From NCBI GenBank assembly GCA_964372375.1, contig CAYJQF010000004.1, positions 1 through 42,731 on the forward strand: a stretch of 42,731 bases of DNA, in the 5' to 3' direction. The position numbers were made by a program, and so were the translations under genes. Below the pieces are notes generated by a model. The model had not been told where the DNA came from and did no database searches. It saw only the letters and a list, made by a program, of their open reading frames with translations. This stretch comes from Candidatus Woesearchaeota archaeon (GTDB lineage: Archaea > Nanobdellota > Nanobdellia > Pacearchaeales > GW2011-AR1). How positions within the stretch are numbered: position 1 is the stretch's first letter; every line of letters begins with the position of its first letter. This document shows, piece by piece, positions 3,074 to 35,061 of this stretch.

Positions 3074-3095
3074 CTCATACTTGGTACAGGAAATT

Positions 3096-5561
3096 ATGAA
3101 AGCATTTGACTTCCAGAAGATAGAAAAGAAGTGGCAGAAACAATGGGAAAAGGAAAAGATATTTGAGGCACATGCAGGGAAGGGAAAGAAAGGTTATGTG
3201 CTGGAAATGTATCCGTATCCTTCAGCTTCCGGGCTGCATATAGGGCATGCATTCAATTATGTAATCGGGGACATTTTTGCTCGATATAAGAGGATGCATG
3301 GATGCAAGGTATTGCATCCTATGGGCTTTGATTCTTTCGGATTGCCTGCTGAAAATGCCGCAATCAAGGAAGGGATTCATCCCCAAACATATACTGATAC
3401 TGCAATCAAGCATTTTATCAAACAGCAGAAAAGTGTAGGATTGAGCTATGACTGGGCTCGTATGCTATGCAGCCATGATCCTGCTTATTATCGGTGGAAT
3501 CAGTATTTCTTTCTGCAGTTTCTTAAAAAAGGTTTGATGTATCGGAAGCAATCAAGTGTGAATTGGTGCTCTGACTGCAATACTGTGTTAGCAAATGAGC
3601 AGGTGCATCAAGGCAAGTGCTGGAGGCATACTGATACTGCAGTCGTAGTTAAGAACCTGGAGCAATGGTTTATTCGCATTACCGCGTATGCGGATGAATT
3701 ACTGCGGGAGATAGACAAGCTCGACTGGCCTGAACGCATCAAGGCAATGCAGCGGAATTGGATAGGAAGGAGTGAAGGAGCGGAGATTGTGTTTACGATT
3801 GCTGGAAAGCCTTGGAAGATATTTACGACCAGACCCGACACGCTTATGGGAGTGACGTTTCTTGTTGTTTCGGCACACCATCCTGATTTGATGCGCCTTG
3901 TTTCTAAAGAGCAGAAGAAAAAAGTAGAGGATTTTGTCAAGAAACTTCGGGGCACGAAGCAGGAAGATTTAGAAAAACTGGAGAAAGAAGGCGTGTTTAC
4001 TGGAGCGTATGCAGAGCATCCGATTAGCAAAGAAAAATTACCTGTGTGGGCTGGGAATTTTGTGCTTGCAGAGTATGGCTCCGGCATGGTAATGGCAGTG
4101 CCTGCACATGACCAGCGGGATTTTGCGTTTGCGCAAAAATATAAGATTCCGATACGGGAAGTTGTCGGGTCAGAAGCAAAGAGTGCAAGGAAAAAAAGCA
4201 TGCAGGAAGCATATACTGGAGCAGGAGTCTTAGTTAATTCAGGAGCATTTGATGGTCTGTTTAGCGGAGAAGCTAAAGAGCATATTGTCAAAGCTTTGGA
4301 AGAGAAGCACGTGGGCTTGAAAAAAGTGCAGTACAAACTGAGAGATTGGTTGGTAAGCAGGCAAAGATATTGGGGGACTCCGATTCCTATTGTGTATTGT
4401 GCTACTTGCGGTGCTGTGCCGGTTCCTGAAAAAGAGCTGCCGGTATTATTGCCTGAAAAAGTGACGTTTGGCAAAGGAAATCCTCTGGAAACGAATAAGA
4501 GCTTTTTGGAAGCGAAGTGTCCAAAGTGTGGAAAGAAAGGGAGAAGAGAGACGGACACGCTGGATACGTTCTTTGACAGCAGTTGGTATTATTTGAGGTT
4601 TACTGACACTAAGAATATAAAGTTGCCTTTTGACAAGCAGAAAGCAAGCTATTGGATGCCAGTCGATTTCTATACGGGCGGGGCAGAACATGCATGTATG
4701 CATCTTATCTATGCTCGATTCTTTACGAAAGCATTACGAGATCTTGGATTCCTGAGCATTGGTGAGCCGTTTAAGCGGCTGTTTAATCAAGGCATGATAC
4801 ACGGAGAAGATGGGTTTGTCATGTCCAAATCACGGGGAAATGTCGTTGATCCGATGGAGGTTGCGCAGGAGTATGGAGCTGATACCTTGCGGTTCTTTTT
4901 GATGTCTCTCTCTGCTCCCGATACAGATTCGATATGGAGCGCAACGGGGATTGAGGGAAGTAAGCGGTTTTTGAGCAAGCTTACTAGTACTTTGCTCAGA
5001 TTAAAAAAAGGAACATCAAGCGCAAAAGCAGCACATAAAGTACATACGAGCATACAAGCAATCAGCGAGGAGATTGAGTATACTAACTATAATAATGCCC
5101 TTATCCACATTCGGGAGCTCATGGAAGTGCTTGCACAGGAAACAGAACTAGGAAAGAGTGAGTATGATGCAGTTATCAAACTGCTTGCCCCCTTTTGCCC
5201 GCATGTTGCTGAAGAATTATGGGAGCGTGCAGGAAACAAGGGATTTGTTTCGTTGGCAGCATGGCCTCAAGCTGATACTAGCAAAATAGACGATGCTCTT
5301 GATAAAGCTGAGGAGGCTGTTGAGAAGACCATAAGTGATATTTTGAATGTGCTTAAGATTGTAAAGGAGAAGGGCAAGGAAGGAGGGAAAGTCTACTTGT
5401 ATGTTATCCCTCATGAGCTAAAGAACTATGATTCTGAGTTGTTGGGCAAGAGAATAGGGAAGCAGGTTGCGGTTTTTGCGGTGAATAATAAGCAGAAGTA
5501 TGATCCTGAAGGGAAAGCTGCAAAAGCAAAGCCGGGCAAGCCTGGGATTTATGTTGCATAA
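3096..5561 (+). CDS. leuS: leucyl-tRNA synthetase, bacterial-type
   Basis: HIGH motif (GLHIGHAFNY), a KMSKS variant (VMSKSRGN), and the bacterial-type block HPMGFDSFGLPAENAAIK. ATG 3096 is preferred over the TTG at 3081 because of TATA spacing. Confidence 0.93.
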   Translation: MKAFDFQKIEKKWQKQWEKEKIFEAHAGKGKKGYVLEMYPYPSASGLHIGHAFNYVIGDIFARYKRMHGCKVLHPMGFDSFGLPAENAAIKEGIHPQTYTDTAIKHFIKQQKSVGLSYDWARMLCSHDPAYYRWNQYFFLQFLKKGLMYRKQSSVNWCSDCNTVLANEQVHQGKCWRHTDTAVVVKNLEQWFIRITAYADELLREIDKLDWPERIKAMQRNWIGRSEGAEIVFTIAGKPWKIFTTRPDTLMGVTFLVVSAHHPDLMRLVSKEQKKKVEDFVKKLRGTKQEDLEKLEKEGVFTGAYAEHPISKEKLPVWAGNFVLAEYGSGMVMAVPAHDQRDFAFAQKYKIPIREVVGSEAKSARKKSMQEAYTGAGVLVNSGAFDGLFSGEAKEHIVKALEEKHVGLKKVQYKLRDWLVSRQRYWGTPIPIVYCATCGAVPVPEKELPVLLPEKVTFGKGNPLETNKSFLEAKCPKCGKKGRRETDTLDTFFDSSWYYLRFTDTKNIKLPFDKQKASYWMPVDFYTGGAEHACMHLIYARFFTKALRDLGFLSIGEPFKRLFNQGMIHGEDGFVMSKSRGNVVDPMEVAQEYGADTLRFFLMSLSAPDTDSIWSATGIEGSKRFLSKLTSTLLRLKKGTSSAKAAHKVHTSIQAISEEIEYTNYNNALIHIRELMEVLAQETELGKSEYDAVIKLLAPFCPHVAEELWERAGNKGFVSLAAWPQADTSKIDDALDKAEEAVEKTISDILNVLKIVKEKGKEGGKVYLYVIPHELKNYDSELLGKRIGKQVAVFAVNNKQKYDPEGKAAKAKPGKPGIYVA

Positions 5562-26456: not shown

Positions 26457-27938
26457 ATGCAAACGTTTTCATTCATTACGAAGTCAGCTCTCTTTGTTTT
26501 AGCAGGCATGATACTTTCTAGAGTTTTTGGCTACGTATTTCGTATTCTTATTGCTCGAACTTCCCTGGAAGTGTATGGCTTCTATACTTTAGCGCTACTT
26601 GCAGTGCAGTTTGTCTTGCCGTTTGTTTTATTGGGAACAGGATTGGGCTTATCTCGGTTTATCGGGCATTATCGAGGCAAGGGGCATCAGCATAAAGCGG
26701 ATCGCGTCACTAGCACAGCACTTATTGCGGTAAGCGCCATGAGTCTTCTTTTCTTCTGCATTTTCTTCTTAGGAGCCGACTGGATTGCTGGCTGGTTTCA
26801 CAAACCAGAGAGTGCTCTTTTTTTCCGTGCCTTTGCTTTCTTGATTCCTCTGCTTGGATTAATGCAGGTTTTTGGAACACTCTTGAAGGCACATGGGAAT
26901 GTATTTTCATTTGCCCTGGTAACTAGTGTCCTGGTCAGTTTCCTTGAACTTGTTTTCCTTGCTCTTTTTCTAAATCTTGGATGGGTTCCTGAAGGTATCG
27001 TTGCTGCTGTAGTAGTGCCTAGTTTTTTAGCAGTAGTGGTGCTTTGGTGGTTGGCACGGACTTTGTTTCGTTTTACTTTAGAAGGATTTGATATACCCTT
27101 CTTACGGTTTTCCCTATTGTTGTTACCTGCTTCTTATTTCTTTGGCTTTCTGAGTACGATTGACTCTCTGGTATTAGGCCACTTTTCAAGCACGCATGAT
27201 GTTGCTGTCTATAACGCGGCTCTCCCTACGGCACAGATGATTCTCCTGGTGTCAACGGCGCTGCTTACAGTATTTCTGCCTTTAATTTCAGAGCACACGG
27301 CGCGCCGGAAGCGCATTGCACAGGAATATGCATTTGTCATTCAAAGCAGCATTCTTTTTGCCTTACCTTTAGTTGTGTTTGCCCTTGTGTTTCGTACTGC
27401 TTTACTCGGAATCTTTTTTGGCCCTGTTTTTATATCAGGCAGTTTTTCTTTTGCGTTACTGACTCTTGCTTATTTCTTCTACGGGCTTGCGTTGCCTGGG
27501 CAGCAAGTGCTCATTATGCTGAAAAAGACAAAGCTGGTGTTTTGGCTTAGCCTCAGCACTTTTGCACTTGCAGTCATACTTACTTTCTCTTTCATTCCAT
27601 GGTCTTTGCACCAGTATGGCACCGGCATGTACGGTGCAAGTTTTGCCACTTTGCTGGCATTTCTTTTTCTTTGCAGCATCACTTTCTTTTTTGCGCAGCA
27701 ATATGTGCGTCTTCATCTCAGTATACGAGATGTTCTTGTTCCGTTGCTTGCAGCGAGCATAAGCGCTTTTGTGGTCTTTGGTATGTATGGACTTCTTAGA
27801 CATACTTTATTTTCTTTGGTGGTCGCAGGCGGCGTCTTTATGGTATTGTATGGACTCTTGATTGTGTTAGCGCGGAACTTTTTAGCTGGAAATCAAAGCA
27901 TTCGTTTCATGCGCTCGGTTTTTCAGCAGCGGAAGTAG
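26457..27938 (+). CDS. Wzx-like polysaccharide flippase (MOP superfamily)
   Basis: 493 aa with about 12-14 TM helices and the typical N-terminal SALFVLAGMILSRVFGYVFRILIAR. Confidence 0.75.
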   Translation: MQTFSFITKSALFVLAGMILSRVFGYVFRILIARTSLEVYGFYTLALLAVQFVLPFVLLGTGLGLSRFIGHYRGKGHQHKADRVTSTALIAVSAMSLLFFCIFFLGADWIAGWFHKPESALFFRAFAFLIPLLGLMQVFGTLLKAHGNVFSFALVTSVLVSFLELVFLALFLNLGWVPEGIVAAVVVPSFLAVVVLWWLARTLFRFTLEGFDIPFLRFSLLLLPASYFFGFLSTIDSLVLGHFSSTHDVAVYNAALPTAQMILLVSTALLTVFLPLISEHTARRKRIAQEYAFVIQSSILFALPLVVFALVFRTALLGIFFGPVFISGSFSFALLTLAYFFYGLALPGQQVLIMLKKTKLVFWLSLSTFALAVILTFSFIPWSLHQYGTGMYGASFATLLAFLFLCSITFFFAQQYVRLHLSIRDVLVPLLAASISAFVVFGMYGLLRHTLFSLVVAGGVFMVLYGLLIVLARNFLAGNQSIRFMRSVFQQRK

Positions 27939-29919
27939 CGAGTAAGCGTTTTGTTTTTGCGTAATAGGCGTTTATTTCTTCTTTGGAGAGTGTTTTATTG
28001 TATATCTCAAGATAAGCAATGTTGCCGGTAAACGTATTGCTCCAGGATGAGCCAATGCGTAACTCATTTGCTATTGAAGGATTGTACACAAGGGAAGGTA
28101 TGGGGAGGGAGCGGGAAGATTTGTTTACTTGCAAGGTGATATTCTCGTTTTTGCTTAACGCAATAAAATTCCAGTTTTTTAGTGCGAGCAGGTTTGGTAC
28201 CTTGAGTTTTTTTGTTCCGTTTATTTCTTGCCAGCGCACGAACAGGGCATTATTCTCAATAAGTACAGACCAGCCTGCGTGATAAATGTCTCCTTGGCCA
28301 GAAACAAGGAGTACCGCCTTGTTGAGCGAAGCAGCATCTGGTTTTATCCAAACTAACATGGTGAAGTTTTCTAAGAGCTGATTAAACAGAGGCAGAGCTA
28401 GAGAGGCATTTTTTTCCAAGTGCACTATCCTAGGAATACGGAATACACTTTCTTTCTTAATATCAATGCGATAGATGAATCCTGTCCCCTCAGCAAGCGG
28501 AGTAAGGAATGAGCAGTTGAGTTTGCTGGGAGCATACACATAGACAGTTGGTCGCTCTGGTTTTCTATCTCGTAATTTGTCTTCACTTTGAGAAGTCAGA
28601 TATTCGTTGTAGAGGTCTTCTTCTTGTATTGCACAAGGTGCTTTGTAGAACGCCTCAAGGTCTTTCTGTTTCTTCCAGTTTGAGAAGGTGAGTGCAGGTT
28701 CATGTCCTGTTATTGGTTTTACGGTAATGCCCATGTCTAATGGAGTAAGTATCACGCCAGGAGGATATGCTTTGAGTTGCAACAACAAAGGCAACTCACT
28801 TGGTTCAATGGTATGGTAGAGCGCGACTTCGGGAGCAAGGATGAATTGTTGGTAACTCATGAATGCCAGGACTGTAATAATACCTAACGCAGTTATCGTA
28901 GGCAGATGTTTGGTGTATTTTTTCATTTTCTCTTGTATCCAGCATATACTGGAATACAAGCCGAGAGCGCTTAAGGGAATACAAGCAAGCATAAAATGGT
29001 AGAGGTAGCGTTGGTAGGCCGAGAAGACGCTTATGTTAGTGAATGGAAATTGCAGGAGCATAAGCAGGGAGAGTAAGGCGTAGATTCTGAAAGTAAGGAG
29101 TGTTTTTTGTTTGTAGCTGGTGTAGAAGCCAATCAGTGCGAATAAAGAAGGAAGTATGCCGTACAAAAGAAAAGGGTTGTAATTAATCTGGGGTACAATG
29201 GGTCCCCAGAGCAGAACTTGTGAAAGAGAACCCTTGGCGAAGACATACACGGCATAGATAAAAGCGATACTTATGAGAGTAAGCAGAACAAGGAACGGTT
29301 TCAGTATCTTCTTATTCTCGCTTACTTTCTTATAGCGCATGAGCAGGTAGATACAGGAAACTACTCCTAGGACAAAGAAACTTGATTGATGAATGAGGGC
29401 AATACTGAACAGATAGAGCGCGACGAGCCAGAGTTTTTGTGGCTTGTTTTCCTGGATTGCTTCTTCTAACGTGAACAAGGCGAGGTAATCAAAAAAAGCT
29501 GAGGCCATGATAGGAACAAAGAACCAGATGCCGAGAATGTTTACATTAGAAGGCAAGAATATGAGAAAGAGCAGAGCAGCGAGACCCGTCCAGGCAGTAT
29601 ATTTTTTTCTCAGGCAGAAAAACAGCACTAATGAAATAAAAAGTATATTCAATGCTGGTAAGAATTGGTATACTTTAACTAAAGAAAGTGTGGAGCCGAG
29701 TATAAGTGAGAGAACCAGTAAGAGCAGGTCAAAGCCTATTTCTACCGGCGAATGATTGAGCAGGTAGGCAGGTCCTTGCTCTTTCATGCGCTCCATTTTT
29801 CCCAGATGGGTCCATTCATCAAGATGAAAAGGAAGGGGATAAGAGATATGGGGAGCATACGTCAGTATGACTGCAGTAATAAGGGCAAGGATAAGCAGCA
29901 GCTTTTGGAATAGGTTCAT
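27907..29919 (-). CDS. polytopic membrane protein (GT-C-like N-terminal region) with a C-terminal LamG/concanavalin-like domain
   Basis: About 13 TM helices. The first loop is HLDEWTHLGK (acidic DE pair). The C-terminal FTMLVWIKPD...NWNFIALS...LRIGSS...FTGNIAYLEIYNKTLSKEEINAYY matches the Laminin_G_3 pattern. Confidence 0.7.
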   Translation of the reverse strand: MNLFQKLLLILALITAVILTYAPHISYPLPFHLDEWTHLGKMERMKEQGPAYLLNHSPVEIGFDLLLLVLSLILGSTLSLVKVYQFLPALNILFISLVLFFCLRKKYTAWTGLAALLFLIFLPSNVNILGIWFFVPIMASAFFDYLALFTLEEAIQENKPQKLWLVALYLFSIALIHQSSFFVLGVVSCIYLLMRYKKVSENKKILKPFLVLLTLISIAFIYAVYVFAKGSLSQVLLWGPIVPQINYNPFLLYGILPSLFALIGFYTSYKQKTLLTFRIYALLSLLMLLQFPFTNISVFSAYQRYLYHFMLACIPLSALGLYSSICWIQEKMKKYTKHLPTITALGIITVLAFMSYQQFILAPEVALYHTIEPSELPLLLQLKAYPPGVILTPLDMGITVKPITGHEPALTFSNWKKQKDLEAFYKAPCAIQEEDLYNEYLTSQSEDKLRDRKPERPTVYVYAPSKLNCSFLTPLAEGTGFIYRIDIKKESVFRIPRIVHLEKNASLALPLFNQLLENFTMLVWIKPDAASLNKAVLLVSGQGDIYHAGWSVLIENNALFVRWQEINGTKKLKVPNLLALKNWNFIALSKNENITLQVNKSSRSLPIPSLVYNPSIANELRIGSSWSNTFTGNIAYLEIYNKTLSKEEINAYYAKTKRLLATSAAEKPSA

Positions 29920-29996
29920 TACCTGAGCAACGCATACTGCTAATTAAATCTTGCTTAAAAGAAAAGCGTAAATAGACTTGAACGTATACGGTCTTT

Positions 29997-30614
29997 ATGG
30001 TGAGGAAGTATATTCTTTTTGCCCTCTTTTTTGTGCTTGTATGCTCTTCTTTTGTGTCTGCGTTTAGCGTATCAAGTTGGTTCAAGGGGACGTTTACTGG
30101 TAAAGTAACTCTAGAACCAATTTGTGCTGATACTGATGGAGGGTTGAATTATTATGTACAAGGAACGGTAACTCAGATTAACCCTTTTGATAACGCTACT
30201 ATTACGTATACTGATTCTTGTTATAACAGCACGCTTTTGCAGGAATGGAGTTGTGGCAATAGCACACGAGCAAGCAATCTTGCCGCTAATTCCTTTTATG
30301 GATGCCCGTATCCAAGCATATGTAATATTAGTGCTGGTGCGTGCACGAGTGTTCCCCAAACTCCTGGAACCTATAACATATGCCAAGGTAAAGTAGCCCG
30401 CAGTTGGCATTCAAGCAGGTGTAATGTACGTCGCGTATGTTCGAGTGGAGGGTTATGTGAGAATAAGAGTGTACGAGTGTCGAATGGGTTTGGTGGCAAG
30501 ACAACCAATTATTATTACCGGGAAGTGTGCACTCAGCGGTATCGAACCTCCTGCGGAAGCGCTCCTTCGTGCGGTGCTGACGGGAAGGTAAGCACCATTG
30601 CTTGCAACTTCTAA
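29997..30614 (+). CDS. secreted Cys-rich protein
   Basis: Signal peptide (MVRKYILFALFFVLVCSSFVSAFS) followed by about 20 Cys, including a CADTDGG...GTV...YTDSC...C...C...GAC module. Confidence 0.65.
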   Translation: MVRKYILFALFFVLVCSSFVSAFSVSSWFKGTFTGKVTLEPICADTDGGLNYYVQGTVTQINPFDNATITYTDSCYNSTLLQEWSCGNSTRASNLAANSFYGCPYPSICNISAGACTSVPQTPGTYNICQGKVARSWHSSRCNVRRVCSSGGLCENKSVRVSNGFGGKTTNYYYREVCTQRYRTSCGSAPSCGADGKVSTIACNF

Positions 30615-30639
30615 GCAGCGTGAGTTAGGGAAGACAGAA

Positions 30640-30653
30640 ATATATATATATAT
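30640..30653. repeat. (AT)7 dinucleotide microsatellite
   Basis: atatatatatatat, read directly. It lies between the two Cys-rich ORFs. Confidence 0.9.
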
Positions 30654-30699
30654 GATTTCTTCACAAGAGCTATGAGAAGGAGCATGTATAGAACAGAGC

Positions 30700-30903
30700 G
30701 TGCAGAGTGTGTGCGAGGATAGTGATAGTGCAAATGATGTAAAAGTTAAAGGGACGGTTGTGTTTAAGGGAACTGAGTATTCAGATGTGTGTGCAGAGCA
30801 GGGATTGAGTGTGAAGCAATACTTCTGTGCTTCTGGGAAGCTGCGAAATTTTGTGAAGCGGTGCTCTGGTGAGACGAGATGTATGCAGGGTGTGTGCGTT
30901 TAG
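30700..30903 (+). CDS. stand-alone copy of the Cys-rich module; GTG start, no signal peptide; possibly a gene remnant
   Basis: CEDSDS...GTV...YSDVC...C...C...C...GVC aligns with the module in 29997-30614. The only in-frame start is a GTG. Confidence 0.35.
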   Translation: MQSVCEDSDSANDVKVKGTVVFKGTEYSDVCAEQGLSVKQYFCASGKLRNFVKRCSGETRCMQGVCV

Positions 30904-30907
30904 AATA

Positions 30908-31127
30908 TTATGTGCTCTTGCTTATGCTATCTGACCAGATATCATAATATTTTACCGGAATTTTCCTTTGTTTGAACTCTTGCTGCAGTTTATGCAGGCA
31001 TATTGAAAAAAGCTCGATTGCGCCCTGCATTATGTTATAGCCAAGATTCCTTTGATTTTCCTCTATTCCTTCTTCTATGGCTCGCTCTATGTTCTTTATA
31101 GGCTTTTTCGTGCTCTTCAACTTTCAT
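30908..31127 (-). pseudogene. frameshifted, C-terminally truncated paralog of the HEPN-like gene at 32728-33156
   Basis: The frame from ATG 31127 gives MKVEEHEKAYKEH (compare MTSIEEHQKKIHEH). The frame from TTG 31120 continues IERAIEEGIEEN...LHKLQ...KIPVKYYDIW (compare INDAIEAGIENK...LHIAEKIPLGKVIKHDWF). It stops at about half the length. Confidence 0.6.
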
Positions 31128-31166
31128 TTTGTTACTCTTGTAATCACTTATTGTTACACATGTAAT
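31120..31166. repeat. copy 1 of a 47-bp dispersed direct repeat (40 bp exact)
   Basis: ttttgttactcttgtaatcacttattgttacacatgtaat is identical to 33303-33342, and the 7 bp before it differ at one position. Confidence 0.9.
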
Positions 31167-31235
31167 TTCTAATAAAGGTATTTAGCTATTTGAGATATTC
31201 CCGCGCTTCGTCTTTTCGGTATGCTTCCAGCAGTT

Positions 31236-32093
31236 TCATTCTGATGCCTGTAGTTGCCGAATGGCAGGAAATTGCATGCCCATTGCTTTGCGTGTTTCTC
31301 GGATAGCGTGCTCTTGCTCGGGAGAAGCATTTTTAAGAGCATTGACAAGAAAGGAATCTACTTCTCTAAAGACTCTTTTTCTTTTTTCAATATAATCATT
31401 GCTTACTTTGAATTCTCCAGCTAGGGTTCTGGCAATTTCATGCGCATTAGCATCATATTCATATATGTTATATACAACTTGTGCATTGATTGAGCCTGTA
31501 TTCAAGCCATTTACTAATGCATTTTTTGGCAGGTATTTCAGCCCTTCTCCGTATTGTGCCGCATGCCTTCCTTCATGCGCAACAATGCTTTGTTTTATCT
31601 CTTCAGCATCTGCAAACATTTTGGAATCAAATATCTTTCTTCCTATGAAAATTTTCGTGTGCCTGTTTTTTCCTGCATTATCTGGAATATCTGGAGTTTT
31701 CAAATCATACCATCCCGTATTCAGAGTATCCAATCCTGTTCCCAGCGCTCCTTCTACATTATCCCATGTTAGTCCTAATGCCTGCAATTCAGAGGTATAC
31801 CATTCTCTAATTCTCTTTCCTGTAGGGTCATAGACGACACCGTCACAATATGGAATACTTATTCCATCTACCAAATTTTCAAGAAATCTTTTTCTGTAGT
31901 TTGTGTGTTTCTTTGCATCTTCAAATGAAGGATTGCTGAGCAGTTCACCTTTCACATAGGCTCCTATTTGTTCATGATAGGTAAGAGCAGTTCCTACTCC
32001 CATGCATGCAAGAGCAGCTATGCCAAGCTGCATCCAGGCACGCCGAGCTAACAGGGATTCTTGAGCTTTTCGCTTTTCTTTTAATTGTGACAT
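31236..32093 (-). CDS. membrane-anchored HExxH protein (putative zinc metallopeptidase)
   Basis: One TM helix (WMQLGIAALACMGVGTALTY). HEGRH at residues 173-177 (nt 31563-31577), with Glu residues downstream (YGEG, YEYD). Confidence 0.5.
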   Translation of the reverse strand: MSQLKEKRKAQESLLARRAWMQLGIAALACMGVGTALTYHEQIGAYVKGELLSNPSFEDAKKHTNYRKRFLENLVDGISIPYCDGVVYDPTGKRIREWYTSELQALGLTWDNVEGALGTGLDTLNTGWYDLKTPDIPDNAGKNRHTKIFIGRKIFDSKMFADAEEIKQSIVAHEGRHAAQYGEGLKYLPKNALVNGLNTGSINAQVVYNIYEYDANAHEIARTLAGEFKVSNDYIEKRKRVFREVDSFLVNALKNASPEQEHAIRETRKAMGMQFPAIRQLQASE

Positions 32094-32114
32094 AGAATCT
32101 GCTCTTGAACAGGG

Positions 32115-32124
32115 GATTTAAATC
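32115..32124 (-). promoter_or_regulatory. palindromic TATA-like box (GATTTAAATC) overlapping the MNT stop codon
   Basis: It ends 22 nt upstream of ATG 32093. Confidence 0.4.
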
Positions 32125-32738
32125 TTTTTGTTGCTTTCATATATCTGATCTGTCCAGATTTCAAAGAATCTGCTGTCTACTTTTTCTGAAGAAAGCTTTT
32201 TTATTATTTCATGGGCTTTTGCCAGAGGAATAATAAAAGATGTCGGTGCAAGTTTTTTTCCACCATACTCCTCAACAATCCCTTTCACAAGATAGTTATT
32301 TTCCTTCCTTCCAAAAAGCCATCGTGCTATTCTGTTTCTTTTTGTAATGTCTTTGATTACTGAAATAGTGAACAGCATAAAAGGGGTGCTTTCTTTAGGG
32401 ATTTCCTTATATTTTCCATACAGCAGCATACCATCGCTTATAATGCTTCTTTTGAGCTTCCATTTTTCAAGGTTTCCTGATTCTACTCTAATAGCATTTT
32501 TTATGCCCTTGTTCTTCCATACCTTTTGGACTTCTGACTTTAAGAATTTAGCCATCAATGCATTTATTTTCTCTCTCCGTATATCTTTTTTTACGTTGAA
32601 GAAGAGGTCTATATCGCTTTCTGCCGAAGATTCTTTTCTTGCAACAGAGCCGTAGAGTATGATTTCTTCCACTTCTATCTTGGGCAAAACAAAGGATACA
32701 AATGCCGAAGCATATGCAATTAATTCTTTAGAGTCCAT
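32118..32738 (-). CDS. minimal nucleotidyltransferase (MNT) domain protein with a ~90-aa C-terminal extension
   Basis: ILYGSVARKESSAESDIDLF is the GS-x(n)-DxD Pol-beta-type NTase signature (nt 32607-32651). Residues ~115-206 are unassigned. Confidence 0.75.
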   Translation of the reverse strand: MDSKELIAYASAFVSFVLPKIEVEEIILYGSVARKESSAESDIDLFFNVKKDIRREKINALMAKFLKSEVQKVWKNKGIKNAIRVESGNLEKWKLKRSIISDGMLLYGKYKEIPKESTPFMLFTISVIKDITKRNRIARWLFGRKENNYLVKGIVEEYGGKKLAPTSFIIPLAKAHEIIKKLSSEKVDSRFFEIWTDQIYESNKKI

Positions 32739-33156
32739 ATCCTTCCTCCTTTAACAAGCCTAGAAATAGCTCCTTTATTTTATTGAAAGATAAAAGAATT
32801 TTTTGAATTTGCTCTTTTGTCGGCTTGCCGTACATAAGAGAATTTCTTTCCTCTTCTATAGAATATATCAGCTCATATATTTCATCTTTTTTTGGAAACT
32901 GAGCAGGCAATTTTCTCTCTATCATCGCTTCTTTCTTCTGCTCTGCTGCCGGTCTTTTGAACCAATCATGCTTGATGACTTTGCCGAGAGGTATTTTTTC
33001 GGCAATGTGCAAATACATCTCCAGATATTGCAGTGCGCAGGCTGAACAGTGAAAGCCCAACGTAACTGGTTTATTTTCAATACCTGCTTCTATTGCATCG
33101 TTAATCTCTTCCAAATGCTCATGTATCTTCTTCTGGTGCTCTTCTATTGATGTCAT
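32728..33156 (-). CDS. all-helical HEPN-like protein
   Basis: 142 aa, overlapping the MNT gene by 11 nt. EERNSLMYG (residues 102-110) sits where HEPN families carry Rx4-6H, with Tyr in the His position. Confidence 0.45.
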   Translation of the reverse strand: MTSIEEHQKKIHEHLEEINDAIEAGIENKPVTLGFHCSACALQYLEMYLHIAEKIPLGKVIKHDWFKRPAAEQKKEAMIERKLPAQFPKKDEIYELIYSIEEERNSLMYGKPTKEQIQKILLSFNKIKELFLGLLKEEGYGL

Positions 33157-33164
33157 TTTTATAA

Positions 33165-33251
33165 GGTATATTCGATACCTTCATCTGGTATATTTTAATC
33201 CTTATAAGCTTTGCGGTATATTCTATACCTTCATCTGGTATATTTTAATCC
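33165..33251. repeat. two tandem 37-bp units (one mismatch, 50-bp period) in the cassette promoter
   Basis: ggtatattcgataccttcatctggtatattttaatcc / ggtatattctataccttcatctggtatattttaatcc. On the minus strand each unit reads TTAAAATATACC-N7-GGTATA-N3-TATACC. Confidence 0.9.
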
Positions 33252-33295
33252 GCTTCAAGGCGCGTTAGTTCAGAGAGGCAGAGGAAAAGCCCTCT

Positions 33296-33342
33296 ACTTT
33301 CTTTTTGTTACTCTTGTAATCACTTATTGTTACACATGTAAT
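33296..33342. repeat. copy 2 of the 47-bp dispersed direct repeat
   Basis: See 31120-31166. Here the position matching copy 1's ATG reads AAG. Confidence 0.9.
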
Positions 33343-33360
33343 AGCAGGTTTCTTCACTAG

Positions 33361-33369
33361 TTTTATATA
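33361..33369 (+). promoter_or_regulatory. TATA-like box for lig
   Basis: ttttatata ends 22 nt before ATG 33391. Confidence 0.5.
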
Positions 33370-33390
33370 GCTCAGAAAGGTTTCTTACTC

Positions 33391-35061
33391 ATGCTCTATC
33401 AGGAAGTTGTGGAAATATATGAAGCATTGGCAGGGACGACGAAACGGCTGGAGAAAGCAGATATGCTTGCTCCTTTCCTGCACAAGCTGGGAAAGCAGGG
33501 AAAGCCGGAATGGGTGTATCTCTTGCAGGGAAAAGTGATGCCAGACCATGATAGCAGGGAGTTTGGCATTTCTACTCAGCTTGTTTTGAAGGCACTTGCG
33601 CAGGCGTATGCTTGCAAGCAAGAAGCTGTTTTAGAACGATTTAAGAGGAAAGGTGATCTTGGAGAGCTGGCAGAGTATTATGCTGCTGTGCGGAAGCAGG
33701 CACTGCTCTCTTCCAAGCCGTTGCAGGTAGAGCGCGTGTTTACTCAGTTACGGCAGGTTATGGACGTTGCAGGCAAGGGAGCAGTCGAGAAGAAATTAAC
33801 CCTTATTGGAGCACTGCTTGCTCACGCTTCACCTTTGGAGGCAAAGTATCTTATCAGGACATTGGTACAAGATTTACGAATTGGTGTGCAGGCTGCCCTC
33901 ATTGTGGATGCTTTGTGCAAAGCATTTCCTGATAGCAGCAAGGAGGCTGTTCAGAAAGCATATGACAGCAGCGGTGATTTTGCGCTTGTGTTCCTCGCGG
34001 CTGGAAAAGGGAAAAAAATGCTGGAAACGATTGGCATTCTTCCTGGCAGGCCGCTACATCCCATGTTAGCAGTTCCCGTACAAGATATTGCCGAAGGGTT
34101 TGAAGTGTGTGGGAAGCCGGCAGCCTTGGAATTTAAGTATGATGGTTTCCGCTTGTTGATTCATAAGAGTAAGAGGAAGATACAGTTGTTTACTCGGAGG
34201 TTGGACGAAGTGAGTACGCAGTTTCCTGATGTGGTACAGGCAGTGGAGCAGTATGTACAGGGAACTGACTTTATCTTAGATGCTGAGGCAGTAGGGTTTG
34301 ACCAGAAGACGGGGAAGTACTTACCCTTTGAAGCTATCAGCCGGAGAATTAAGAGAAAGCATGACATCCAGACATTGCTGGAACAGCTGCCGGTGGAAGT
34401 GAATGTGTTTGATATTCTGTATTATGAAGGGAAGAGTGTGATGGAGCAGCCGTTTCTTGCCAGAAGAAAACTGGTTGAACAGCTGGTGGACAGGAAGGAG
34501 CGCATTATTAGACCTTCAGAGCTGCTTGTTACTGGAGAGGTGCAGGAAGCCGAGCAGTTTTATGAGAAAGCATTGGAGCAAGGAGAGGAAGGTATTATGA
34601 TTAAGAATATCAGTGCACGGTATCAGCAGGGGAGGAAAGTAGGCTATATGGTGAAGCTTAAGCCGGTGGTGAAAGACCTTGATTTAGTCATTGTGGGAGC
34701 AGAGCATGGTACGGGTAAACGAGCAGGCTGGCTTACGAGCTATAGTGTTGCGTGCAGGTCTGGAAATGCCTTTTTGGAAGTAGGCAAGGTAAGCTCAGGA
34801 TTAAAGGAAAAAGAGGAAGAAGGCATGACGTATGCGGAGATGACGAAACTACTCAAGCCTTTACTACTTGAGAAGACAGAAGAAGGAGTGAAAGTACAAC
34901 CAAAAGTAGTAATGGCAGTTACGTATCAGAACATACAGAAAAGCCCGAGCTATAGTTCTGGTTATGCTTTGCGTTTTCCGAGAATTAGCGCTTATCGGCC
35001 GGATAGGGGAACAGAAGATATTGCCAGTTTGAAGGATATTGAAAAGGCAGCTCGGCAGTAA
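33391..35061 (+). CDS. lig: ATP-dependent DNA ligase
   Basis: Adenylation motif I (EFKYDGFR), EGIMIK, LDLVIVGAEHGTGKRAG and the typical C-terminal OB domain. Confidence 0.93.
   Translation: MLYQEVVEIYEALAGTTKRLEKADMLAPFLHKLGKQGKPEWVYLLQGKVMPDHDSREFGISTQLVLKALAQAYACKQEAVLERFKRKGDLGELAEYYAAVRKQALLSSKPLQVERVFTQLRQVMDVAGKGAVEKKLTLIGALLAHASPLEAKYLIRTLVQDLRIGVQAALIVDALCKAFPDSSKEAVQKAYDSSGDFALVFLAAGKGKKMLETIGILPGRPLHPMLAVPVQDIAEGFEVCGKPAALEFKYDGFRLLIHKSKRKIQLFTRRLDEVSTQFPDVVQAVEQYVQGTDFILDAEAVGFDQKTGKYLPFEAISRRIKRKHDIQTLLEQLPVEVNVFDILYYEGKSVMEQPFLARRKLVEQLVDRKERIIRPSELLVTGEVQEAEQFYEKALEQGEEGIMIKNISARYQQGRKVGYMVKLKPVVKDLDLVIVGAEHGTGKRAGWLTSYSVACRSGNAFLEVGKVSSGLKEKEEEGMTYAEMTKLLKPLLLEKTEEGVKVQPKVVMAVTYQNIQKSPSYSSGYALRFPRISAYRPDRGTEDIASLKDIEKAARQ

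Follow-up and report, generated by a model that had tools for sequence, protein, structure and literature searches.

A conserved pair of HEPN-like and minimal nucleotidyltransferase genes in DPANN archaea and its possible relationship to type VII HepT/MntA modules

Do three small genes, which follow each other on one strand of an archaeal contig between two direct repeats, form a single functional and mobile unit? They lie on the minus strand of contig CAYJQF010000004.1 of a Candidatus Woesearchaeota archaeon (assembly GCA_964372375.1), positions 1-42,731 of which, that is the whole stretch of 42,731 nt analysed here, are called the window below. We call g1 the gene of a HEPN-like protein, g2 the gene of a nucleotidyltransferase and g3 the gene of a protein carrying the motif HEGRH; "the pair" means g1-g2. 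An original prediction had taken the three genes for one accessory module which had duplicated or recombined, possibly a defence or addiction system with a membrane effector. The three co-oriented open reading frames (ORFs) that it described are present, together with the overlap of 11 nt between g1 and g2 and the gap of 24 nt between g2 and g3. The unit which is conserved among genomes consists of two genes, g1 and g2. We give a probability of about 60% to the reading that this pair is a divergent, DPANN-specific, type VII HepT/MntA-like module, whose mechanism would combine AMPylation with repression of its own operon. The features on which the argument rests are the following.

32728-33156, minus strand: g1, ORF of 142 aa, putative HEPN-like four-helix protein
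32118-32738, minus strand: g2, ORF of 206 aa, MntA-type minimal nucleotidyltransferase with a C-terminal domain
31236-32093, minus strand: g3, ORF of 285 aa, exported or anchored putative zinc metallopeptidase
33165-33251, minus strand: promoter/operator region of g1-g2, four palindromes and a B recognition element (BRE)/TATA element
33293-33342, minus strand: upper copy of a 50-nt direct repeat, displaced operator pair
31117-31166, minus strand: lower copy of the same 50-nt repeat, where the relic has its native operator pair
30908-31127, minus strand: relic g1'-g2', remains of a second pair of a different subfamily

The conserved pair

The g1 family comprises at least 165 homologue clusters, nearly all of 142 aa and 60-75% identical, whose annotation does not go beyond hypothetical proteins of Nanoarchaeota and Pacearchaeota. 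We scanned the GTDB species genomes and obtained 34 g1 loci, in assemblies of Nano-, Pace-, Woese- and Aenigmatarchaeota, with mostly one pair found per genome. The search of 1.84 billion representatives with a hidden Markov model of g1 returned only 127 relatives (50% clustering); no relative of g1 was found in the IMG/VR viral contigs, and a tblastn search of plasmids with the N-terminal domain of g2 gave no match. The two genes are adjacent or overlapping in 33 of the 34 GTDB loci as well as in loci L001-L006 and L043, while the 34th GTDB locus shows no g2 for the simple reason that the end of the contig cuts it off. Wherever a locus has enough sequence, a homologue of g2 lies directly downstream of g1.

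We then clustered the neighbouring ORFs of about 37 independent DPANN loci: the g1 family is present in 35 of them, the g2 family in 34 and the next family in 4 at most. Since the g1 and g2 families are the only ones widely common to these loci, the pair is a self-contained module in variable neighbourhoods. Its flanks include housekeeping genes, namely a DNA ligase gene in the window, the gene of RNA polymerase A' in L043 and that of RtcB in L001.

The third gene does not follow the other two. We looked at co-occurrence in other genomes and found g3 in none of the roughly 37 pair loci, and neither g1 nor g2 in any of 10 independent loci of g3 homologues. The original prediction had itself held that the trio would be refuted if the three genes never occurred together elsewhere, and in the loci examined they never do; by its own test, the three-gene unit is refuted. 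We concluded that g3 is unrelated to the pair, of which it is a coincidental neighbour; the proposed defence system with a membrane effector is not supported.

One Aenigmatarchaeota scaffold (L028, 4001-6400) carries two tandem g1-g2 pairs, the g1 copies of which are about 40% identical; their operators are GGAAC-type at the first pair and TATAC-N4-GTATA at the second. A run of N separates these pairs, so that their adjacency depends on the scaffolding. We also considered a synteny between the window and L001-L003, where the pair is followed by a Laminin_G_3 protein of about 660 aa, and rejected it because BLASTP shows the proteins to be unrelated: the 670-aa multi-pass membrane protein of the window (27907-29919, minus strand) has a weak C-terminal motif resemblance (E = 0.42) to the 657-aa Laminin_G_3 protein of L001, and from their sequences we judge that the two are not homologous.

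The two proteins and their promoter

The motif G30-S31-x10-D42-I-D44 (GS-x10-DxD) is read in g2, and the protein passes both Pfam cut-offs, that of Polbeta (37.4 bits for a cut-off of 26.9, E = 2.9e-9) and that of NTP_transf_2 (29.5 bits for a cut-off of 21), in agreement with the minimal nucleotidyltransferase (MNT) that had been predicted here. The nucleotidyltransferase domain extends from residue 1 to about residue 112. Foldseek places the model of g2 closest to MntA/MNT antitoxins (7bxo, 8xeo, 8xeh), to 1wot, a minimal nucleotidyltransferase, and to HI0073 (1no5), with probabilities of 0.8-0.99; that the E-values are no better than about 0.03-0.14 is due to the loose packing of the two domains in the model. 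In NCBIfam, g2 reaches 27.6 bits (E = 2.1e-6) with MntA_antitoxin, below the cut-off of 60, and 26.5 bits with HalB, for which the cut-off is 190 and where only the 27-residue GS..DxD region is covered. More generally, the PDB and NCBIfam profile matches of g2 (MNT, MntA, HalB, DrrA) fall in the region of the catalytic motif and below the family cut-offs. Two homologues of g2, P0156 and P0207, give sub-threshold Pfam matches to SidM_N and SSV1 D-63; SidM_N is a domain found in SidM/DrrA, an AMPylating effector of Legionella, and at the level of sequence these matches may be weak hints of a protein-AMPylating kind of nucleotidyltransferase.

Beyond this domain, residues ~118-197 of g2 are predicted to fold as a ferredoxin-like beta-alpha-beta-beta-alpha-beta domain (predicted local distance difference test, pLDDT, about 90), which carries the invariant basic helix KRNRxxRxLFGR. 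This C-terminal domain has no match in Pfam, and Foldseek returns Cas2-like matches only, all weak. One can also see a GGAGG Shine-Dalgarno sequence about 7 nt before the ATG of g2, within the 3' end of g1 (32739-32755, minus strand). No Shine-Dalgarno sequence precedes g1 or g3, and TATA-like elements are found about 48 nt (g1) and about 26 nt (g3) away. This suggests a first cistron with a short leader or none at all and an internal cistron led by a Shine-Dalgarno sequence.

For g1, a helical protein of 142 aa with RNSLMY at the place of the HEPN Rx4-6H motif had been announced, and it is indeed found there, at residues 104-109; moreover R104-N-S-L-M-Y109 is part of an invariant family motif. 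The signature reads E101-x2-R104-N105-x3-Y109-G110-K111, with H63 invariant as well; in the wider family H7, S38, H63, E101, R104, Y109 and G110 are invariant or near-invariant, and the signature becomes E-x2-R-x4-Y-G. The AlphaFold2 model of g1 (pLDDT 78, predicted template modelling score, pTM, 0.72) has helices at 4-24, 38-51, 90-109 and 114-137, arranged as the four-helix up-down bundle of two alpha-hairpins which is expected of a HEPN domain. The published definition of HEPN that we used also includes an insertion which separates helix 2 from helix 3, a polar residue following the Arg and an acidic residue in helix 2 (PMC3710099). In g1 the insert is made of residues 52-89 (38 residues), with a short helix at 78-82, and it holds H63; R104-N105 stands at the end of helix 3 (90-109), with the polar residue after the Arg as in HEPN; and in helix 2 the close family has an invariant E46 (E-x-Y-L-H-K), but the residue at +4 is a His and not the Lys/Arg of Ex3[KR]. 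Weak HEPN signals recur: 6 of 40 members of the g1 family match CARF_HEPN, Csx1 or Csm6 models (E from 1e-3 to 1e-2), and the HEPN entries 1wol, 2hsb, 4nqf, 3c18 and Csm6' are among the non-significant Foldseek matches of g1 (E > 2), the match to 2hsb having E = 5.2 and TMq 0.41. We consider that g1 is plausibly HEPN-like, with the odds rather in favour of this assignment, which is statistically weak. That R104, E101 and H63 are invariant speaks for an active site more than for a passive scaffold.

The PDB profile matches of two g1 alignments (CLIC, SRP, Abraxas) were judged to be due to chance. The g1 profile is also matched in large proteins (P0310, P0328, P0330, P0337, P0346, P0367 and P0371, 722-2940 aa), in 5-13 short stretches which fall mostly at profile positions 5-46; these matches probably reflect a Lys/Glu-rich coiled coil or repeat, not homology.

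The promoter brings evidence of another kind. Upstream of g1 we found a tandem 37-nt repeat (33165-33201 and 33215-33251), which resolves into four 15-bp palindromes.

33237-33251, minus strand: palindrome GGTATA-N3-TATACC
33215-33229, minus strand: palindrome GGTATA-N3-TATACC
33187-33201, minus strand: palindrome GGTATA-N3-TATACC
33165-33179, minus strand: palindrome GGTATA-N3-TATACC

They form two pairs which flank the BRE/TATA element CTTATAAGG (33200-33208). The same layout, that is a palindrome pair, a purine-rich BRE followed by TTTATAA, one or two palindromes and the ATG, is found upstream of g1 in about 36 loci. An archaeal repressor classically has its site between the TATA box and the start. 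Across the promoters of the pair the palindromes measure 14-15 bp and belong to at least four sequence classes, which follow the subfamily of the pair.

GGTATA-N3-TATACC (class A): Pace-, Woese- and Nanoarchaeota-type loci
GGAAC-N4-5-TTCC (class B), or GGTAC...TACC: Aenigmatarchaeota-type and other loci
GTTAC-N4-GTAAC: subfamily of the g1 homologue P0277 (L043)
TATAC-N4-GTATA: second pair of the L028 scaffold

Across the switch from class A to class B, the identity of g2 is 33%, compared with 50.6% among class-A members which are equally distant in g1 (the identity of g1 is 54-57% in both comparisons). Seven of the residues that discriminate between the classes are in g2 and one is in g1, and 4 of the 7 lie where the basic helix begins, at positions 128-135. 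This covariation between operator and g2 points to the C-terminal domain of g2 as a candidate reader of the operators, and the arrangement of the promoter suggests that the g1-g2 module is probably autoregulated.

The direct repeat, the relic and the HEGRH gene

The direct repeat, described before as one of 47 bp, is real, but it measures 50 nt, of which 48 are identical between the copies (33293-33342 and 31117-31166), and its edges are sharp; its exact core of 38 nt occurs 2 times in the window, for 0 occurrences expected by chance. It consists of the palindromes ATTACATGTGTAAC and ATTACAAGAGTAAC, 8 nt apart, together with 13 nt from the start of the relic ORF. In L043 the promoter is arranged in the same way (GTTACTTTTGTAAC / GTTACAATTGTAAC, the first palindrome occurring as GTTACTTTTGTAA[C/T]). 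The lower copy includes the relic ATG (31125-31127) and, because a TATA-like element (CCTTTATTAGAA, 31167-31178) lies directly upstream of it as in L043, we take it to be the promoter that the relic had natively. In the upper copy (ATTACATGTGTAAC at 33329-33342, ATTACAAGAGTAAC at 33307-33320) the position of the relic ATG reads AAG; no TATA adjoins this copy at the native place, and for this reason we take it to be a displaced duplicate. It sits between the promoter of g1 and that of the divergent DNA ligase gene which adjoins the pair. Single-crossover integration of a segment, local duplication and gene conversion are candidates for its origin.

This means that the repeat does not demonstrably mark the boundaries of a cassette, as had been proposed: it is an operator pair plus 13 nt of the ORF of a second pair, and neither an integrase nor a tRNA gene is found nearby. 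There is no ORF for an integrase, a transposase or a recombinase between or beside the repeats and no tRNA gene in the whole window, and an Rfam scan of 29500-34000 gave a single snoRNA match, judged to be due to chance, hence no Rfam family in the region. A search of the JGI metagenome contigs for the repeat core gave 0 matches, but this collection does not hold the source contig and is uninformative on polymorphism. The upper copy ends 49 nt upstream of the ligase ATG (33391), beside an element TTTTATATAG (window 33343-33391) which is probably the TATA box of the ligase gene; that a regulator of the lost module once affected the expression of the ligase is speculative.

Next to the lower copy there is indeed, at 30908-31127, a frameshifted fragment which resembles the first gene, but it is not a half-length copy of g1: it is identical to residues 1-51 of P0277 at 39 of 51 positions (76%) and only 38% identical to the resident g1. 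Its g1' part consists of codons 1-51 (31127 to ~30986), with one frameshifting indel near 31090-31100; once the frameshift is repaired it reads MKVEEHEKAYKEHIKNIERAIEEGIEENQRNLGYNIMQGAIELFSICLHKL..., and the alignment ends at LHKL. The g2' part (~30976-30908) holds the last ~16-20 codons and the stop of a nucleotidyltransferase, the tail FKQRKIPVKYYDIWSD matching the C-terminus ...FQGKRIPVKMYDLWSD* of the nucleotidyltransferase which partners P0277 in L043. We rejected the assignment of this tail to the 'KIPLGKVIKHDWF' region of g1, as the L043 nucleotidyltransferase terminates in WSD and the match stops there. Since a g1'-like start is joined to the C-terminal end of a nucleotidyltransferase, the relic was formerly a complete g1'-g2' pair which, judging by its sequence, has lost about 0.8 kb internally (from the middle of g1' to near the end of g2') besides undergoing a frameshift. 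The postulated duplication must be given up, as the fragment does not derive from g1, belongs to a different subfamily and carries the 3' end of a nucleotidyltransferase gene. The removal of the conserved motif half of g1' and of almost all of g2' by a single deletion could have been a safe way of losing a toxin-antitoxin pair; it is equally compatible with simple decay.

As to composition, the unit had been called AT-rich on a contrast of about 30% against 47% G+C. The region is in fact, at the 0.5th percentile, the 2.4-kb stretch of the window with the lowest G+C, but its 37.4% compares with a window mean of 41.8%, a far smaller contrast. The reference of 47% had been leuS, by which the long ORF 3081-5561 (44.2%) may have been meant; the ligase gene has 47.1%.

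We now turn to g3, which had been described as a single-transmembrane protein with HEGRH: the motif is at residues 173-177 and there is one hydrophobic segment at ~19-37. The motif extends to HEGRH-x2-Q (173-180), and in a four-member alignment H173, E174, H177, Q180, E212, D214 and H218 are invariant, R176 being replaced by His in one member. The N-terminus (ARRAWMQLGIAALA, residues 1-40) has RR and a hydrophobic segment and resembles a twin-arginine export signal more than a simple transmembrane anchor; in the homologue P0123 the corresponding sequence is SRRRFMTG. Three homologues were found in the first search and 8 more loci in the metagenome scan, and these loci show no conserved neighbour beyond close relatives. 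The protein itself has no match in Pfam, NCBIfam or PADLOC, and its PDB profile matches (I-CreI) were judged to be due to chance, which leaves no PDB relative. With the four-member alignment, Pfam gives sub-threshold matches to DUF6782 (in 2 of 4 members, E = 0.039) and to eCIS_core (E = 0.77; PF13699, formerly DUF4157). Like these putative zincins g3 has HExxH followed by Gln (HEGRHxxQ), but the profile matches are far below the thresholds, and g3 and its relatives stand apart as a small family with an export or anchor segment at the N-terminus. We regard g3 as a putative exported or anchored zinc metallopeptidase. A BRE/TATA-like element AAAAAGATTTAAAT (32116-32129) overlaps the stop codon of g2, 22 nt before the ATG of g3; this being the spacing expected for an archaeal BRE/TATA and a leaderless mRNA, g3 is probably transcribed alone.

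Two Cys-rich, apparently secreted small proteins (29997-30614 and 30700-30903, both on the plus strand) are encoded by genes converging on the relic. The one of 205 aa is 36% identical to part of a protein of ~1200 aa adjoining the g3 homologue in L049, and the latter protein has a homologue of ~1280 aa beside the g3 homologue in L050. It may be that g3 belongs with cell-surface genes rather than with the pair.

Proposed mechanism, rivals and significance

The closest known system is the type VII HepT/MntA system of Shewanella oneidensis (SO_3165/SO_3166). The pair shares with it two small overlapping genes, an MNT with GS-x10-DxD whose best structural matches are MntA structures, a helical partner whose R-polar-x3 motif is located where helix 3 ends, and a conserved Tyr at the motif (for the known Tyr, see PMC13000451). 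The strict linkage of MNT and HEPN-like genes by which type VII systems are recognised is present too, with the 11-nt overlap and the internal GGAGG. So are promoter palindromes: the MNT antitoxin of S. oneidensis binds two of them in its own promoter (PMC4621449), and for g2 such binding is predicted. The pair differs from this system in the Tyr which replaces the catalytic His in g1, in the order of the genes, in the extra C-terminal domain of ~85 residues in g2, for which the matched MNT/MntA chains of 98-125 residues are too short, in the fact that g1 matches neither DUF86/HepT nor any Pfam HEPN model, and in the confinement of the family to DPANN archaea.

Other systems resemble one part or another. 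In HEPN domains of the AF0298 (2hsb)/AbiV type the His of the motif is absent, and a strongly conserved His is found in the helix 2-3 insert instead (PMC3710099); likewise g1 keeps the Arg of the motif, has no His there and has H63 in the insert, but AF0298/AbiV-type proteins give no significant score with g1, which has an invariant Tyr-Gly at the position of the His. Makarova, Wolf and Koonin (2019) described the DPANN-specific cls.004259 (NEQ050), an MNT fused to HEPN, of housekeeping context and 'unusual conservation', and cls.004340 (NEQ484), a DPANN-specific alpha-helical protein (PMC6393860). Compared by description only, these families are like ours in being restricted to DPANN, of MNT/HEPN type, unusually conserved and placed beside housekeeping genes; cls.004259 is unlike ours in being a fusion protein, whereas ours consists of two genes, and for the C-terminal part of g2 the prediction is a beta-alpha-beta-beta-alpha-beta domain, not a helical one. 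HI0073/HI0074 and kanamycin nucleotidyltransferase also associate an MNT domain with a four-helix partner derived from HEPN, separate or fused, and HI0073 (1no5) is among the structural matches of g2, but g1 has no sequence match to NTase_sub_bind (PF08780), and conserved operators and a relic paralogue are not described for those enzymes. Finally, the Hailong system (HalA/HalB) does not account for the pair, since HalB scores 26.5 for 190 bits and g3 is unlinked.

The mechanism which we propose is the following. The nucleotidyltransferase g2 would most likely act on its partner g1, a HEPN-like four-helix protein with a Tyr for the catalytic His and the invariant His63 in the helix 2-3 insert. 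By analogy, the candidate reaction is an AMPylation of the invariant Tyr109: this residue is proposed as the acceptor because MntA oligo-AMPylates a Tyr next to the motif of HepT (PMC13000451). The C-terminal domain of g2, with g2 acting alone or together with g1, would repress the operon at the promoter palindromes. As for g1, it would be either an RNase, possibly toxic, using R104, H63 and E101, or a domesticated regulatory or substrate-binding partner. In this scheme the strict pairing, the motif and fold of the nucleotidyltransferase, the conserved layout of the operators and their covariation with the subfamily are observations, while the HEPN assignment, the target of AMPylation, the binding of DNA by g2 and any toxicity are inferred.

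Several points weigh against this mechanism. The R+5 residue of the motif is Tyr instead of the His of Rx4-6H throughout the g1 family, and an RNase activity of g1 is doubtful because the canonical His is missing; moreover, this Tyr stands at the position of the His, which is not known to be one of the positions AMPylated in HepT proteins. We found no relative of g1 in Pfam or NCBIfam and no relevant PDB profile match, and Foldseek gave no match of the g1 model with E < 0.8 in PDB and BFVD. The HEPN-like gene comes first, as had been noted, which is the reverse of the order in S. oneidensis, where the MNT gene is upstream. The covariation between operators and g2 is confounded by phylogeny, and it is possible that a regulator encoded elsewhere reads the palindromes instead of g2. 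Lastly, the identity of 60-75% and the fixed length of g1 are unusual for a toxin, and a domesticated function fits them as well or better.

This last point leads to the rival explanation which survives best, namely that the pair is a domesticated housekeeping module, in which g1 would be an inactive, HEPN-derived substrate-binding or regulatory subunit of g2, in the manner of HI0073/HI0074 or of the C-terminal domain of kanamycin nucleotidyltransferase, and the pair would serve a conserved cellular task in DPANN archaea, with no toxin-antitoxin or defence role. It agrees with the loss of the canonical His in the whole family, with the high conservation and fixed length of g1 in four DPANN lineages, with the usual finding of one pair per genome and with the housekeeping genes of the flanks; a precedent exists in the domestication of MNT-HEPN systems described by Anantharaman et al. 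2013 (PMC3710099), and the DPANN-specific MNT-HEPN family of housekeeping context and 'unusual conservation' mentioned above (PMC6393860) speaks in the same direction. It is harder to reconcile with the entire absence of conserved synteny among the ~37 loci, with the paralogous pairs with distinct operators on the L028 scaffold and with the paralogue lost by deletion in the window. The small size of the family (127 representatives at 50% clustering), the invariance of R104, E101 and H63 and the elaborate operators at its own promoter, which are typical of toxin-antitoxin autoregulation, do not favour it either. A selfish module is favoured by the variable neighbourhoods, by the distinct operators of the paralogues and by the relic, and we regard domestication as a serious but rather unlikely explanation.

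A second rival bears on g1 alone, which would be unrelated to HEPN: a four-helix DNA-binding or adaptor partner, and hence a novel kind of nucleotidyltransferase subunit, the R...Y motif of which resembles Rx4-6H by chance. That Foldseek yields generic helical bundles only, all with E > 1 and none of them significant, and that sequence searches of Pfam and PDB return no HEPN family is what this explanation leads one to expect. We find it more doubtful than the preceding one. Against it, g1 agrees with the published description of HEPN (PMC3710099) in where the motif stands, in the insert, in the polar residue that follows the Arg, in the Glu of helix 2 and in the alternative His, the recurring weak matches are specifically to HEPN-bearing models, and a strict linkage to an MNT is the classic context of HEPN.

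As for a three-gene, repeat-bracketed cassette moving as a unit for defence or addiction, the co-orientation and tight spacing of the genes, their position between 96%-identical 50-nt direct repeats (inter-repeat segment of 2,176 bp), the lowest G+C of the window and the rarity of g3, inserted here relative to the other pair loci, count for little beside the absence of g3 from all ~37 pair loci and of the pair from all 10 g3 loci, the BRE/TATA-like element of g3 22 nt before its ATG, the explanation of the repeat as the operator pair of another module, the lack of any integrase, transposase or tRNA in or beside the unit, and the fact that neither the repeat in the JGI metagenome contigs nor the pair in the IMG/VR viral contigs was found, so that we hold it to be very improbable. 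What stands is a real module of a HEPN-like protein and a minimal nucleotidyltransferase, with Tyr at the position of the motif His, which by its variable neighbourhoods and its paralogues, one of which is a relic here, looks like the accessory or addiction-type element that had been imagined; the mobile three-gene cassette is not supported. The 'membrane metalloprotease effector' and the 'repeat-bracketed cassette' were features due to coincidental neighbours and to the relic.

The HEPN/MNT kind of system is already known. What appears to be undescribed is the g1 family, its Tyr-for-His signature together with the His of the insert, the extra domain of g2, the reversed gene order and the four classes of operators. 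Among the toxin-antitoxin-like modules of archaea, HEPN/MNT pairs are the most abundant, yet almost none of them is known to have been characterised there; conserved lineage-specific genes are very few in DPANN archaea. A bolder reading, which we consider unlikely, is that the pair is not a toxin but a domesticated, lineage-wide ATP-sensing switch of DPANN archaea, with Tyr109 as a dedicated AMPylation site and the C-terminal domain of g2 as a new archaeal operator-binding domain; if this were true, at least four operator classes would have diversified and would insulate paralogous modules from each other.

Returning to the type VII-like module, the g1-g2 family offers a compact and testable case of HEPN-like proteins with a Tyr for the His and of an MNT with an undescribed domain. 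Its four operator classes, set in one fixed promoter layout, amount to a natural experiment in the co-evolution of operator and regulator. The family could show how type VII regulation and insulation work in archaea, and whether such modules become domesticated in reduced genomes.

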